DNA of 64,000 nucleotides from an uncultured Nitrososphaeraceae archaeon (GTDB taxonomy: Archaea; Thermoproteota; Nitrososphaeria; Nitrososphaerales; Nitrososphaeraceae), in the NCBI GenBank assembly GCA_963765895.1, contig CAVXZB010000084.1, positions 480,001-544,000 of the forward strand. Direction: 5' to 3'. This document shows positions 3,004 to 52,780 of this stretch, piece by piece (position 1 is the stretch's first letter; each line of letters begins with the position of its first letter). A program made the position numbers and the translations under genes. The notes below the pieces were generated by a model that made no database searches, had not been told where the DNA came from, and saw nothing but the letters and a program-made list of their open reading frames with translations.

Positions 3004-3366
3004 TTAAACTTGCACCTGCTCTAGTTTCTCTAAAAGAAAATCCAGATCCACAGGTTTTCTTATACAAGAATGAACTCCTTTTTTAACAAGTTCTTCTATT
3101 TCTGAATCTATTACTGATGAAGCAGTAAATACTATAATTTTTTGTTTAGTTAAAAGTCCCTCCTTCAGAAGCGAATTAATTACATCAAATCCACTGAATT
3201 CAGGCATAGCTAAATCTAGCAGTACGATATCGAATTTTTTTTCGCGAATGAATTTTAGCCCTTCAGTTCCATTCTTTACATAGATAAATTCATGGCCACT
3301 TCCATTTAAGACTGTGTCAAGCAGTTCATTTATGTCTGTGTTATCGTCTATTCCCAGTATTTTCAT
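3004..3366 (-). CDS. Single-domain response regulator (receiver)
   Basis: ILGIDD..FDIVLLDLAMPEFSG..IIVFTA..IRKP; start overlaps the kinase stop. Confidence 0.95.
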   Translation of the reverse strand: MKILGIDDNTDINELLDTVLNGSGHEFIYVKNGTEGLKFIREKKFDIVLLDLAMPEFSGFDVINSLLKEGLLTKQKIIVFTASSVIDSEIEELVKKGVHSCIRKPVDLDFLLEKLEQVQV

Positions 3367-5324
3367 TTAGCTTCTTCTCTGACATCCATTACTTTTTCGC
3401 TCATTACTTTTTCGCTCATTGTTGTATTAGTTCTGTCATTTGGAATGGTGAAATAAAAGCTTGCTCCCTTTCCTAATTCGCTTTCAATCCATATCTTACC
3501 TCCTAATGATTCAATGATCCCTTTTGAGATTGCTAAGCCCAGGCCTGATCCTCCATGTTTCCTAGTCACTGAAGTGTCGATCTGGTAAAATTTATGGAAA
3601 AGATTCTTTTGTTTTTCAGGTGATATTCCTGTTCCGTTATCCTTTACATAGAAGAGTACGTCATCATCTTTACTTTGAGCACCATATTCGATTTCACCAC
3701 CTTCAGAAGGAACAAAATCGACTGCGTTAAGAATAAGGTTATTTAAAACTTGCTCTATTCTATTTCTATCTGATCTGATAGTAAGTTGCTCTTTTGTAGA
3801 GTTTATTTGTCTAATATTCTTTTGAGCCATTACATTTTGAAGGTTATTATACATATAGTTTAATAGATCATCGACATTTATAGGTTGACTATCAAACTTC
3901 ATTCTATTAAGATCAAGTTTTTGCACATCTAATATATCTCCAACTAACTGAAGTAGTCTTTTTGCATTCCTTTGAATTACATCTACTGCATTAAGTTGTT
4001 TGCTATTTAACTGTCCTATCAATTTTGGATTCTTTAGAGTCTGACACCATCCAATAATAGGAGTAAGGGGAGATTTTAATTCATGTGTAACCATCGAAGC
4101 AAATTCGTCTTTTTGTTTTTCAGTAGCATTTACTCTTTCTATCATTTCGTTAAATGCATCTATAACTTGGTTGATTTCCTTGTCCTTGCCTGTAGGATTT
4201 ATTCTTTGTAAGTCACTTACATCTTGGTTTCTACATTTCCTTGCAAAGTCTATGATGGGGCGAGTAATTCTATTTGATAGTATATATACTGCTATTAATC
4301 CACCAGCAATTACACCAAGAGATATTACCAATAGGATGACGGCAAGATTATGCAAGTTATAGTTATCAGACATCATTAATGAATATGGTTTTTCGTAAGC
4401 TAAAATCCAACCGAACATAGGTAATCGTTTGTAGACAATATAATGCAATTCTCCATTTGCAGAATACGTTACATGACCGGTATTTGTACTATTATCACTA
4501 GCTAAAATATTTCGGATGTCTTTATTAAATTCAGAAGATGCTGAAATAGTACTTATCGAAGGAAAAAAGTCTTTTGGAGACTGGCGAAAAGGTGCTGAAT
4601 TTAGACTTTGGTTGTAAACATGACCTGAGTCAGCTACCAAGTATCCTCTAGGATCAACCACATAAGCCCTACCTTGATCGACTCTGGTCATATCCTGAAA
4701 AGATTTTAGAGGCATTTCAAAATGATAAAACGCAGGTTTTGAACCGTCGTTAAGCACTATTGGAGTAGTATATGCAAAAACCCATCTTTTAGTATCAGGT
4801 GAGACATAAGGATACTGCGAATATACCTCATTAATATTTTTCTGAAACGACGGTTTAAAGAATGGCGTAGCTGCTTCTTTAGATGAGAGACTACTAAAGG
4901 GTGCGATTGTCTTCATAACCAATCTAGTGTGTTCTTGCCCTGTCCTATCTACTAAACATGTCTCGTCTACAGAGAACTTGTTCTGAAAGTCATAAATCCA
5001 CTGGTCAAGTTCGTTCTTGACGATTCTCTGTTGTGCTGTAAACTGTAGTACACCATCTTTGTATATATTTCCTGCCCGAGTATCAGGTAATTCAAAATAT
5101 TTTACAAATACCGGATTTTTGACCGCAAATAGCAAATCCTCTGAAGCTCTGGAATTAAGATTATCAATTAAATTCGCTTTGATTTCTACTTCATGACCCA
5201 TTTGTCGAAGTTGAGATTCTATTATTGCTGATTCAAGAGATTTGAAAGATATATATGAAGTAGATACAACTGCAGCGATAATAACTATTGAAAACATTAT
5301 AATTAGCTTTAATTTTATACGCAT
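3363..5324 (-). CDS. Sensor histidine kinase (TM, dCache-like, TM, HAMP, HisKA, HATPase)
   Basis: H-box FASMVTHELKSPL, N-box QVLNNLILNA, G1 VKDNGTGI, G2 GGSGLGLAI; two TM segments. Confidence 0.95.
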   Translation of the reverse strand: MRIKLKLIIMFSIVIIAAVVSTSYISFKSLESAIIESQLRQMGHEVEIKANLIDNLNSRASEDLLFAVKNPVFVKYFELPDTRAGNIYKDGVLQFTAQQRIVKNELDQWIYDFQNKFSVDETCLVDRTGQEHTRLVMKTIAPFSSLSSKEAATPFFKPSFQKNINEVYSQYPYVSPDTKRWVFAYTTPIVLNDGSKPAFYHFEMPLKSFQDMTRVDQGRAYVVDPRGYLVADSGHVYNQSLNSAPFRQSPKDFFPSISTISASSEFNKDIRNILASDNSTNTGHVTYSANGELHYIVYKRLPMFGWILAYEKPYSLMMSDNYNLHNLAVILLVISLGVIAGGLIAVYILSNRITRPIIDFARKCRNQDVSDLQRINPTGKDKEINQVIDAFNEMIERVNATEKQKDEFASMVTHELKSPLTPIIGWCQTLKNPKLIGQLNSKQLNAVDVIQRNAKRLLQLVGDILDVQKLDLNRMKFDSQPINVDDLLNYMYNNLQNVMAQKNIRQINSTKEQLTIRSDRNRIEQVLNNLILNAVDFVPSEGGEIEYGAQSKDDDVLFYVKDNGTGISPEKQKNLFHKFYQIDTSVTRKHGGSGLGLAISKGIIESLGGKIWIESELGKGASFYFTIPNDRTNTTMSEKVMSEKVMDVREEAK

Positions 5325-48969: not shown

Positions 48970-49272
48970 ATGAAAAATCTAATTGCGTTAACTATACTCA
49001 TAGTGATGGTAGCAGGTATAGCAACGGCAACGGTAGCGACAGAGACTGTCATGGCAAAGAAACACAAGCCGGGAACAAGTGCGGTAGAAAGAGGGGTTCA
49101 TGATGCACAAGACAGTTGTCAACATTCAGATGGGTGCCATTGGTACATACTAGGTAAACATAAGGGATTTGGTGACCATTCGTCAGAATTTAACAAGAAT
49201 TATTTGAAGGGATTCTGTGCGGCCGATGGTGGTGGCAGTGACGCAGACCAAGCAACGTTTAGCTGTCCATAA
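48970..49272 (+). CDS. Small exported Cys-containing protein
   Basis: Signal peptide; GVHDA..C..GCHWYI..KGFGDHSSEFNKNYLKGFC; T-rich tract after the stop. Confidence 0.8.
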   Translation: MKNLIALTILIVMVAGIATATVATETVMAKKHKPGTSAVERGVHDAQDSCQHSDGCHWYILGKHKGFGDHSSEFNKNYLKGFCAADGGGSDADQATFSCP

Positions 49273-49454
49273 TCTTTTTTTTATTTTATTTATTTAATCT
49301 AGGCTGATAAAGGTATCAGTTTTGGAGATAGTGTCGGGTTTAGTGTAGGACTACCGAAGAGATCATGGATTTTATCTCCTAGGTATAGTAGTCCCAGAAA
49401 TCCATAATCTTTTTCCGCCGGCTCACTCGCCTTAGGCGATTTGCCTTGCTTCAA

Positions 49455-49690
49455 GGATAGTATGTAGCCAAACTTTGATTAGCCACTCTTCATGCCTCTC
49501 AGTTGCTTGGTAGAAATCAAGGTGTTAACACACTCCACTTCACTTATCTGTTCCTTATTGTGACGTGGTTCAAAGGTACTTTAGGCATATTTCTTTCATA
49601 ATTACGTAAGATAATAGGCTGTATTTCGCCGGCTTCCTGACAATGTAGTGAAGAGCCTGCCTACAGTCAGAATACCGACATTTATTGAAG
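49455..49690 (+). repeat. Dispersed repeat family, copy R5 (end of segment C plus D)
   Basis: CAAGGTGTTAACACACTCCAC..TTTCGCCGGCTTCCTGACAATGTAGTGAAGA. Confidence 0.88.
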
Positions 49691-49744
49691 TCATAACTAA
49701 CAAGCGATAACAATAGAATTAGTGAACTTATAATGCAGTCAGGT

Positions 49745-49924: not shown

Positions 49925-50257
49925 CTACTTCTCAGGCTTTATGGCTTCAATCATAGCATCAATCTTTTTATCCAAACTAAGTATCTCATTAAGTATTCTT
50001 TCGTGATGATTTTGAAATATCTCTATGGATTTCAAAACTTTATCGTGACTTTCTTCGATAGCGTTTATGCGGCTGAGAGTTTCTTCCTGGTTCATAGTAG
50101 TATTCTTCTGTATTTTATAGACCCACCAAGTTATGAGAGCACCTACAACTGCTCCTATTACAATACTAAGATATGTGCTTGATGCATTTGTCATATCTGC
50201 ACAACCCCGGGTTATCTCGGGCATACAGCCCCAAACGACAAGAACAGGTAATACCAT
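49925..50257 (-). CDS. Small membrane protein with coiled-coil tail
   Basis: TM segment YLSIVIGAVVGALITWWVY. Confidence 0.7.
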   Translation of the reverse strand: MVLPVLVVWGCMPEITRGCADMTNASSTYLSIVIGAVVGALITWWVYKIQKNTTMNQEETLSRINAIEESHDKVLKSIEIFQNHHERILNEILSLDKKIDAMIEAIKPEK

Positions 50258-50499
50258 TCTACTATAATGATTTTGACTTAGTGTTATATTTTGTGTATCC
50301 TAAGGGCATCTTGTCTTATCAATATATAATCAACAATTTTTAAGATTATGACATTTATACACTTTAGAATTCTTAATAGTCTCGGAACATTGCTTACATT
50401 TTATGGTCGCCAGTTCATGTTTTATCACAGATCTTGCCTGCTGGCCTTCAGTATGACTAAGAGTGTATCATCAACATCCTTTCCTGACAAGTGCAAATA

Positions 50500-50660
50500 T
50501 CGTCTAATCACAAAGAAGAAATACAAGAGTGCATACGAGCTAGGTAAGCAAGACGCAAATTGCGATACTAGCGCAGGCTGTCACCTCTACATAACAAAGC
50601 CAGGTAAAGGTTTCAAGGATCACTCGCCAGAGTTTAACCACAATTACATTAAGGGAGTAC
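50500..50660 (+). pseudogene. Degraded paralog of the 48970-49272 exported protein
   Basis: SAYELGKQDANCDTSAGCHLYITKPGKGFKDHSPEFNHNYIKG. Confidence 0.7.
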
Positions 50661-50708
50661 GCTTTTTTTCGAAGTCTTTACAACAATATTCTCTAGTCAT
50701 TATAGTCA

Positions 50709-50885
50709 TTACGAATTATCTATGATGTCTTTGCTGCCATTGCCATCGCTCTCGCTGTTATTGTCTTTCATTTTTTTAGTTTTGTTATGCGTATAGACAA
50801 TAGTCCAGATAGTTGCTACAAAATACGGCAACATTATCAGTATTGCTACTACAGGTATAACTTCAGTTGGAACGACTACGACCAT
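50709..50885 (-). CDS. 58-aa single-pass membrane protein
   Basis: MVVVVPTEVIPVVAILIMLPYFVATIWTIVYTHNKTKKMKD.. Confidence 0.55.
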   Translation of the reverse strand: MVVVVPTEVIPVVAILIMLPYFVATIWTIVYTHNKTKKMKDNNSESDGNGSKDIIDNS

Positions 50886-51540
50886 AATTTAATTATTAGT
50901 TAGTTTACTGGACTCCTATTGATAAAGATGTCATTTTTTCTCGTTTACCTCATATCACTAGTATAGCTGCGGTTTACCACGGCCTGCTTAGCCACAGAAT
51001 GTCTGACAACCTTTGTACAGATGGGTAAAAGTTCTGTACAAACGTAATCCTGATCTCTAGCGATATTACATGTTTAATAAGAAGTTTCTGAATGGAGTTC
51101 ACAGACAAGTGATGCAGGAAATCTCTCATAATGAATACAAATACAAGCTACATGTTGTAACTAGATTACTCATTAGTTACTAGCAACCGTAACGTACCGT
51201 ACCACTATATGTGATATGTTGTGTTCGCCGGCACTTAGCGGACCAACAGAATTCTATATCTTGATTTTGGTGTCGTTACAGGAGGATTAGTTTCTTCTAC
51301 CAGATATAGCAAACATCTGATTTCTAGTATATATGTCTCACTGATAACATGATAATATCATAGCTAAATACGTTAACAGTTTAATATTTCGGAACGTTTT
51401 TAGAAGTCCTAGCCTAATTACATAGTTCCTACTCGCCATTTAAATATTTGCCAATAATGTGGTATTATCTAAACCTTAGTCGGAGAATTCATACTCTTAT
51501 GTTTTGGAAAAAATAAGGAAGAAAGGGAATTACAGTTAAA

Positions 51541-51641
51541 TCAATTCGAACTAAGCGCTCCATGTGCTGCATTAGGCAAGAGACTTATTCCTAAGCCGCA
51601 GCAATGAGAGCTCCGATGATAGCTACTAACTTCTTTACCAC
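51541..51641 (-). pseudogene. Tiny exported-peptide precursor (33 aa after restoring one base)
   Basis: GTG start; MVKKLVAIIGALIAA[G]LGISLLPNAAHGALSSN*; TATA-like TTTATAGA upstream and T-rich tract downstream. Confidence 0.6.
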
Positions 51642-51734
51642 TACATGGCTGTAGATTAGATATCATATAATATTATGTGTCTATAAAGTTAGCTTATTTC
51701 CCCATTCCGGGAAATTGGCATGCGGGAATTGCCT

Positions 51735-52185
51735 AGAGCAATATTTTTTGATGTACTCGCCGGCTAAATTTCTGGATTTCGGTATATTGAGAGTCATAGA
51801 ATCAGAAATGTTAGTCTAAACCAGTGAGTTGAGCTGATTCCGCTAAATGACTATAACTCGAGTCTCGTCTTATCTGAATCACGCAGAAAAGATTGCCACC
51901 GGGGATCTACCAATACGACAAAGTCAGCACCTTCATATATCTCTGTTGGTAACGACTTCCCTCAATCTTGACTAGTCGTTCTACATCCTCCTCTTGGTTG
52001 TTAGGTAGAAAACAAGGTGTTAACACACTCCACTCCACCTATCTGAGTTCCTTCTTGTAGTATAGTTTGAAGATATATTTGGCATGCTTCTTTCAGAATC
52101 GCATTGGACTACCCAGCTCGCATTTCGCCGGCTTCTTGGCAATGTAGTGAAGAACCTGCCTGCGTCAGAATATCATATTTTATTG
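51735..52185 (+). repeat. Dispersed repeat family, copy R6 (B, partial C, D)
   Basis: TACTCGCCGGCT, GAAAAGATTGCCA, CAAGGTGTTAACACACTCCAC, TTTCGCCGGCTTC..CAATGTAGTGAAGA. Confidence 0.85.
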
Positions 52186-52382: not shown

Positions 52383-52780
52383 CCTATTTACAAGGGCTGC
52401 AATTAGAGTAAGTGGGCTGTTTGAGCAGTATTTCGTGGTTTACTCGCCGGCTTATGGTCTTGATCTAGATTCGATTTCAGCAAGTCGGCGCTGCCAGAAT
52501 CAGGAATCTTGGCCTAAAGCCGGCGAGCATCAAATACAACCTTCAAGTGACCTGCATTATCTTTATTATTAGTATTACTGCAAATTATATTGGAATTTTC
52601 TTTACCAGCGTTATGACTTAGGCCTAACCTTTCAGTTTGAATTACGAAGAAAAGATTGCCATCCATTGATATCTTCCAACAGGACAAATAGACTTCTTGC
52701 TTATATTGAATGATAGCATGTCGCCCGACCTTGATTAGCCGCCTTACTTTTGCCTCAGTTGTTAGGCAGAAATCAAGGTA
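52383..52780 (+). repeat. Dispersed repeat family, copy R7 (B and C)
   Basis: Aligns with 48300-48440 and with the reverse complement of 19830-20190. Confidence 0.88.

Follow-up and report, generated by a model that had tools for sequence, protein, structure and literature searches.

The micro-gene described here lies on the - strand of the window, by which we mean the whole 64,000-nucleotide stretch of DNA that was analysed, and extends over positions 51541-51641, from a GTG start (51641-51639) to a TGA stop (51543-51541). As assembled, it is read in two frames. The first, of 16 codons from the GTG (51641-51594), reads VVKKLVAIIGALIAAA and runs into a TAG stop at 51593-51591, and the second (51597-51544) reads GLGISLLPNAAHGALSSN, with the tail ALSSN directly before the TGA. 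The distance from GTG to TGA is 101 nt, that is, 34 codons minus one base, and the one-base break falls at 51599-51600, within the codon pair that encodes Gly-Gly in the family to which we assign this gene. The sole open reading frame listed at the micro-gene as assembled is a 41-aa ATG frame (51541-51666). Two TATA-like sequences precede the GTG on the - strand, TTATATGA at 51663-51670 (-29 to -22 from the GTG) and TTTATAGA at 51680-51687 (-46 to -39), of which TTATATGA is the better placed relative to the GTG and may act as the promoter of the micro-gene, in which case the transcript would be leaderless or have a short leader. A T-rich tract 3′ of the stop (51508-51529, - strand), with a run of six T at 51513-51508, is a candidate archaeal oligo-T terminator. 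The elements on which the original prediction was built (a TATA-like sequence, a GTG, 101 nt to a TGA, a T-rich tract, and a frameshift) are all present at this locus, and the thaumarchaeal host it assumed is borne out by a Nitrososphaeraceae genome that carries an archaeal amoA, the relatives of a helicase encoded in the window being named as Nitrososphaeraceae.

Three degenerate copies of a dispersed repeat flank the micro-gene in the window (49441-49700, 51736-52161, and 52423-52780), with pieces that are 72-93% identical, and more copies are found elsewhere on contig C84 and on C73, C29, and C56. A 58-aa protein with one hydrophobic helix (..LPYFVA..), an acidic tail, and no Pfam family is encoded at 50709-50885 (-), and its homologs adjoin micro-gene copies on C9 and in genome G002. 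Upstream of its gene, an element at 51000-51234 recurs beside the copies on C9, C71, and C77. A 110-aa membrane-anchored, coiled-coil-like protein, also without a Pfam family, is encoded at 49925-50257 (-), and a homolog of it adjoins the micro-gene of G070, a genome from a different genus. The window ORFs at 48970-49272 and 50348-50725 (+) are related to small Cys-containing secreted proteins with repeats, a family with further members in the vicinity of the micro-genes on C73, at C84:83910, and in G002.

When the two frames were bridged with an X, the window peptide matched a 26-sequence family profile over positions 2-34 of 34 with 40.5 bits (E 2.3e-9, in a search space of 201,802 six-frame segments of its own genome), and this full-length match argues that the window ORF is not there by chance. 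The broken codon aligns with the first G of the family GG, and the match retains all conserved family positions except at the break. The match of the 41-aa ATG frame is confined to its C half. Judged by this profile, the window feature is a real member of a micro-gene family that is specific to Nitrososphaeraceae and whose genes stand alone. Alignments of intact peptides from 13 genomes (A1, n = 11; A2, n = 26) define a family of about 33-37 aa with a consensus start of M-(K/R)-K-(I/L)-(L/F)-A-I-I-G-A-L-I-x-G-G-x-G-I and an end made of about eight small or hydrophobic residues, P/Q-x-A-x-A, and a short tail with a terminal Asn. The hydrophobic, uncharged stretch has about 20 residues and includes a near-invariant GG (G15/G16). 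K4 is invariant in both A1 and A2; for the two Gly and the terminal Asn, conservation is complete in A1 and at least 90% in A2 (with the Asn present in 26 of 26 A2 sequences), and the Ala at -1 (A30) is invariant or at least 90% conserved. By inspection and counts, the layout resembles the Sec type, with a basic n-region, an h-region that is long at about 20 residues, and small residues at -3 and -1.

The pattern of substitution points to a translated product, as pN/pS was 0.3-0.5 in the six closest pairs and pS was 0.66 vs a pN of 0.35 when pooled over all pairs. The micro-ORF is very short and the window copy is out of frame, which could suggest a frame open by chance, or a conserved element that is non-coding and merely resembles a peptide. 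However, frame, stop position, and residues are conserved over 10 genera and 234 protein-library clusters, synonymous change exceeds non-synonymous change, and an Rfam scan of the window gave no match, so we regard such an explanation as extremely improbable. A tRNA scan of the window was also empty. The family is peptide-coding by these comparative measures, since reading frame, peptide length, the position of the stop, and particular residues are kept across genera under stronger synonymous than non-synonymous change. The copies also share features of transcription units, with TATA-like boxes about 25-35 nt 5′ of stand-alone copies and of the first copies of arrays (tatataat before L017, L018, and L047), GGAG-like motifs before internal array copies, and oligo-T runs 3′ of stand-alone or last array copies (L041, L044, L048, L050, L053, L057, L058, and L019:253-360).

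For five array peptides, the queries being one residue short at the N end, Pfam and NCBIfam returned no family at E ≤ 10 other than a DUF2749 match that stayed below threshold (12.2 bits against a cut-off of 25.5). An ESM Atlas search gave no usable match, and a complex prediction with four copies of the peptide (score 0.05, mark 0.42) is evidence neither way.

A DNA search of 41 related genomes gave short matches exactly over the micro-ORF in one genome of the same genus, and among these 41 relatives no orthologous locus with conserved flanks was found, only family paralogs and dispersed repeats. Genome G004 has two intact homologs of 35-36 aa (L017 and L018) and also the copy that most closely resembles that of the window (L012), which is out of frame with its own ATG at a run of six A. 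A by-eye comparison showed that the codon differences between L012 and the window copy are mostly synonymous. In its own genome, a six-frame profile search detected 12 family loci. Two of them (C68:20096 and C25:51062) are intact and have a canonical tail, four (those of the window, C9, C20, and C69) are broken by a frame change of a single base, and six are shortened or diverged. Family copies are dispersed or tandem, and the largest array, on G006:C634 (L019/L028, about 3360-4320), contains eight head-to-tail copies within about 1 kb, with tails that are all different (GRTLN, GVALN, GRVLN, GRMLN, GVQLN, GINFN, GRTFN, and GRVFN). A phosphoribosyltransferase gene directly follows this array.

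Of 121 Nitrososphaeraceae genomes, 24 had matches at E ≤ 1e-3, and these genomes represent 10 of 18 genera (without the unpublished G092, 23 of 120 genomes and the same number of genera). Nearly all of the matches lie within open frames of 35-50 codons. In a class-wide sample, none of the 261 genomes from 14 other families had a match, and 3 of 39 genomes from its own family did. A library of 1.84 billion cluster-representative proteins yielded 234 matches at E ≤ 1e-3 and 18 at E ≤ 1e-10. Among the best 150 of these 234, 96 have up to 40 aa, 36 have 41-60 aa, and 18 are longer, several of the longer members being two units read as one; 131 of the same 150 end in Asn and 19 do not. The gene had been proposed to be missed by annotation because of its size, and this turned out otherwise: hundreds of members are present in public protein sets, named 'hypothetical protein' or not named at all, as was the case for the ten library representatives we looked up. 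The full-text literature that we searched held no description of this micro-protein family or of peptide signals in ammonia-oxidising archaea. The family is sizeable, lineage-specific, and without a name.

The frame break of the window copy is most likely a consensus error of the assembly, or a minor allele, and not the death of the gene. In the same genome, amoA (G000:C24:168102-168652) is spread over three reading frames in a stretch of about 550 nt, and two frames are needed to read the Rpb2_6 domain of rpoB (G000:C23:24785-25907), indicating that the assembly carries frequent single-base indel errors and that the apparent pseudogenes and the low ORF density of the window call for caution. 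Alignment with intact copies places the breaks of the C9 and C20 copies at runs of G, T, and A. Parts of the stretch are present in four soil-metagenome runs from one study, where no contig bridges 51599/51600 in the form of the window, and an exact-pattern scan of metagenome contigs for the window's own allele gave 0 matches. One contig from run X3, with a depth of 3.4, covers 51363-51599 and continues with an extra C (+ strand) and the next seven letters of the window, reaching only eight letters beyond the break. On the - strand, the extra base makes the broken codon read as Gly, the first of the family GG, and the -1 residue, Gly in the window, is Ala in this contig, as in the family consensus. 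The contig differs from the window at 51560, indicating that it represents another allele and does not prove that the gene is intact in the window's own strain. A single restoring G, as originally proposed, is supported by the extra base of this related run, but the base falls one codon earlier than proposed and restores Gly-Gly, not Ala-Gly.

A genuinely dead pseudogene, with a frameshift that is real in the organism, would equally be one base short as assembled, and the locus does sit amid dispersed repeats and degenerate copies. Several copies of the same genome (C73, C77, C71, C78, and C84:83865) are shortened or diverged beyond a single indel, and L012, which comes from a different assembly, is likewise out of frame, so some family copies may be truly dead. 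For the window copy, however, this seems rather unlikely, as the essential amoA and rpoB genes are equally frame-broken in the assembly, the X3 contig has the restoring base exactly at the family GG, every conserved family position is retained apart from the break, and the promoter-like and terminator-like flanks are intact. We consider the window copy to be probably intact in reality.

Among 173 non-redundant sequences, 154 have a terminal Asn, and in 108 of these 154 the best small-x-small site leaves a tail of five residues. The composition at -3/-1 is biased because the site was picked as the best-scoring one, and the concentration on five residues is not affected by this choice. The 108 tails comprise 84 distinct pentapeptides, with mostly G (57) or A (25) at +1, variable residues from +2 to +4, and N at +5. 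The ALSSN of the window falls in an A-L-(S/T)-x-N group (ALSTN, ALASN, ALTAN, and ALTTN) and is repeated exactly in family member P0122. Of the features that were expected of a peptide-signal family, intact homologs, a constant length, and a kept A-x-A site were found, but the tail is not freely variable, given the preference for Gly or Ala at +1 and the Asn at the end.

Homologs that run on into a long mature domain had been named as a sign of an ordinary exported protein, and they are only a small minority (the 157-aa form in G004, P0132, and P0134). A truncated N end of an ordinary exported protein could be discarded, as almost every member keeps the stop after the tail and few have a long form. 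In the long form of G004 (L055/L056; C31 and C343), the stop after the ..AAALN tail is absent and the frame continues into a 157-aa helical protein, and C69:19575-19694 of the window's own genome is this gene again, its frame changed by a single base. Two further candidates were rejected. An archaeal type IV pilin signal was rejected by inspection, as the peptide is too short and lacks the G/A that follows the basic residues in the pilin motif, and a translation-arrest leader peptide was rejected by reasoning, as a chain of 35 residues would still be within the ribosome tunnel at termination.

Neighbouring genes were clustered at 31 and at 35 loci (within ±3.5 kb for the 35), with attention to families present at three loci or more. 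Only two neighbours recurred across genera: a phosphoribosyltransferase gene, at 5 loci in 4 genomes and 4 genera, and a gene for a dienelactone-hydrolase-like protein, at 3 loci (L028, L057, L045, L043, L042, and L040 for the two together). Their recurrence may reflect leftover synteny or a functional link. These two recurrent families were annotated with Pfam, and the others were judged by eye from representative sequences. Kinase or TPR genes, which were expected nearby if the peptide had a dedicated receptor, do not recur beside the copies in either the 31 or the 35 loci, and the statement that the micro-gene has no adjacent receptor holds for the family, as no candidate receptor is recurrent next to its copies in either set. 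Similarly, no adenylyltransferase, C39 peptidase/ABC exporter, radical SAM, or YcaO gene was apparent among the recurring neighbours of the 35 loci within ±3.5 kb, mostly judged by eye.

Genes for secreted proteins were seen beside some copies. In G004:C402, the L012 copy, the one closest to that of the window, is followed some 180 nt downstream by a gene (L012, 1784-2389, +) for a 201-aa glycine-rich protein of secreted type. A secreted protein of about 230 aa (MNRSHLIIFPL...) starts about 45 nt after the micro-gene on C68, on C9, and on G004:C123 (L022, 5376-6050, -; L025, 3044-3731, -) and is split into pieces in C68 and C9, which are multi-kb duplicates of each other.

Read from N to C terminus, the basic end, about 20 uncharged residues, a P/Q breaker, A-x-A, and five residues form the layout of a predicted type I signal-peptidase substrate. 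A gene for an archaeal signal peptidase I was detected in the genome (79.9 bits, above the cut-off of 51.85). The reading that we favour, if tentatively and at a little under an even chance, is that the micro-gene product is a precursor cleaved by signal peptidase to release the C-terminal pentapeptide. A chain of about 35 residues presumably cannot be targeted co-translationally, so that the peptide would leave the ribosome and then insert post-translationally, with its Lys/Arg-rich N end in the cytoplasm and its short C end outside. The archaeal type I signal peptidase would cut after the conserved A-x-A, freeing outside the membrane a C-terminal peptide, usually of five residues with a final Asn (here ALSSN), and the hydrophobic, GG-containing remnant would stay in the membrane. 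Tails that differ between copies, and genes present in several or tandem copies, would fit extracellular peptide signals or recognition tags. A true signalling role may account for perhaps a third of the weight that we give to the cleaved precursor. The signalling model leaves the G/A at +1 and the terminal Asn unexplained. It also counts against a cleaved precursor that the copies have no recurrent neighbour for a receptor, a peptide transporter, or a processing enzyme.

The conservation of the hydrophobic segment bears on a different possibility. The helix, with its near-invariant GG and its GAL-I-x-GG-x-G pattern, is far better conserved than ordinary signal peptides, which points to a function as a membrane segment. 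The product could then be an uncleaved, single-pass membrane micro-protein, in which the GG helix is functional, through complex packing or self-association, and the A-x-A-G...N end is a short extracellular cap. A segment of about 20 residues can span the membrane, this segment is the best-conserved part of the family (G15/G16 at least 90%, with small-xxx-small spacing), and small proteins can evolve from signal peptides, as a preprint on E. coli MntS reports. Yet an uncleaved protein leaves unexplained the nearly constant spacing of five residues between A-x-A and the stop, the helix-breaking P/Q ahead of it, and the 84 distinct tails among 108. The same N-terminal module also precedes longer, secreted-looking domains in rare members (the 157-aa ORF of L055 in G004, and P0132), and no partner membrane complex is consistently encoded nearby. 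On balance, we think a membrane micro-protein unlikely, though it deserves to be weighed seriously.

The terminal Asn (131 of the 150 best library matches) and the near-invariant GG also recall precursors of ribosomally made, modified peptides, processed either by terminal-Asn chemistry as in microcin C or by cutting of the leader at Gly-Gly, and multi-copy, tandem genes with variable C-terminal residues would suit such a product. This origin is very improbable, however, as no modifying or exporter gene is apparent among the recurring neighbours (35 loci, mostly by eye), the GG lies midway in an uncharged hydrophobic stretch and not at the end of an amphipathic leader, and neither Pfam nor NCBIfam gives a match. 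Other roles that we cannot name are also improbable, though less so.

In anatomy, the family is closest to the Phr precursors of Bacillus and the AimP precursors of phage arbitrium systems, yet it is not one of them. Phr and AimP are encoded by micro-genes with a signal-peptide-like N part, their last 5-6 residues are the active ones, and their paralogs are diversified. The family resembles them in being encoded by stand-alone micro-genes with a signal-peptide-like N part, a predicted short C-terminal product, and diverse paralogs, but it has no sequence homology to them and no Pfam match, and no adjacent gene for a cytoplasmic TPR/HTH receptor was found among the recurring neighbours of its loci (31 and 35). 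Its hosts are archaeal, its hydrophobic part is strongly conserved and contains GG, and its arrays reach eight copies. Its tail has a near-invariant Asn and is predicted to be released directly by signal peptidase, with no second protease.

Other short peptides share single features with the family. The microcin C precursor MccA is a very short, hydrophilic, cytoplasmic ribosomal peptide with an obligatory C-terminal Asn, encoded beside the MccB adenylyltransferase. A terminal Asn is common to both, but the family peptides are hydrophobic and of the export type, and no MccB-type gene is found among their recurring neighbours, mostly by eye. Precursors with double-glycine leaders differ in the position of the GG, which is mid-stretch in the family, and no C39-peptidase ABC exporter was seen among the recurring neighbours (again mostly by eye); the family is not a double-glycine-leader peptide. 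KdpF, CydX, and AcrZ represent a class of often overlooked proteins of fewer than 50 residues with one hydrophobic helix, which are encoded with the complex they belong to and, to our knowledge, have no conserved A-x-A followed by a tail of fixed length. The family peptides are also shorter than 50 residues and have one hydrophobic helix, and they differ in having the A-x-A and the fixed-length tail and in that no partner operon was found at the 31 and 35 loci. Enterococcal sex pheromones are cut from the signal peptides of lipoproteins. MntS of E. coli is reported to be a small protein derived from a signal peptide. In both cases a hydrophobic segment that resembles a signal peptide is conserved and serves as the functional product, and a functional segment of this kind would explain why the GG helix is the best-conserved part of the family; they differ from the family in that they derive from or adjoin a larger exported protein, while the family is stand-alone and has a conserved tail of its own.

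The case of the micro-gene carries a caution for work on this genome, as a frame break in this assembly is not evidence of a pseudogene. It also draws attention to a little-visited field: we know of no studies on the small proteins of ammonia-oxidising archaea, which are soil nitrifiers of global importance, and essentially of no peptide-based cell-cell signalling in Archaea generally, and a full-text literature search found none described for ammonia-oxidising archaea. Even if the members turned out to be membrane micro-proteins, a lineage-specific family of 234 clusters, its near-invariant GG helix, and its terminal Asn would still need explaining. In its boldest form, which we think doubtful, the cleaved-precursor reading would have soil ammonia oxidisers secrete strain-specific (G/A)-x-x-x-Asn pentapeptides, with tandem arrays that encode several 'dialects' and a receptor encoded at a distance, and would make this the first pheromone-like system in archaea. 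The family offers a concrete and testable candidate for such signalling, as the peptides are small and numerous, the predicted products are within reach of chemical synthesis, and the predicted pentapeptides are accessible to targeted mass spectrometry.
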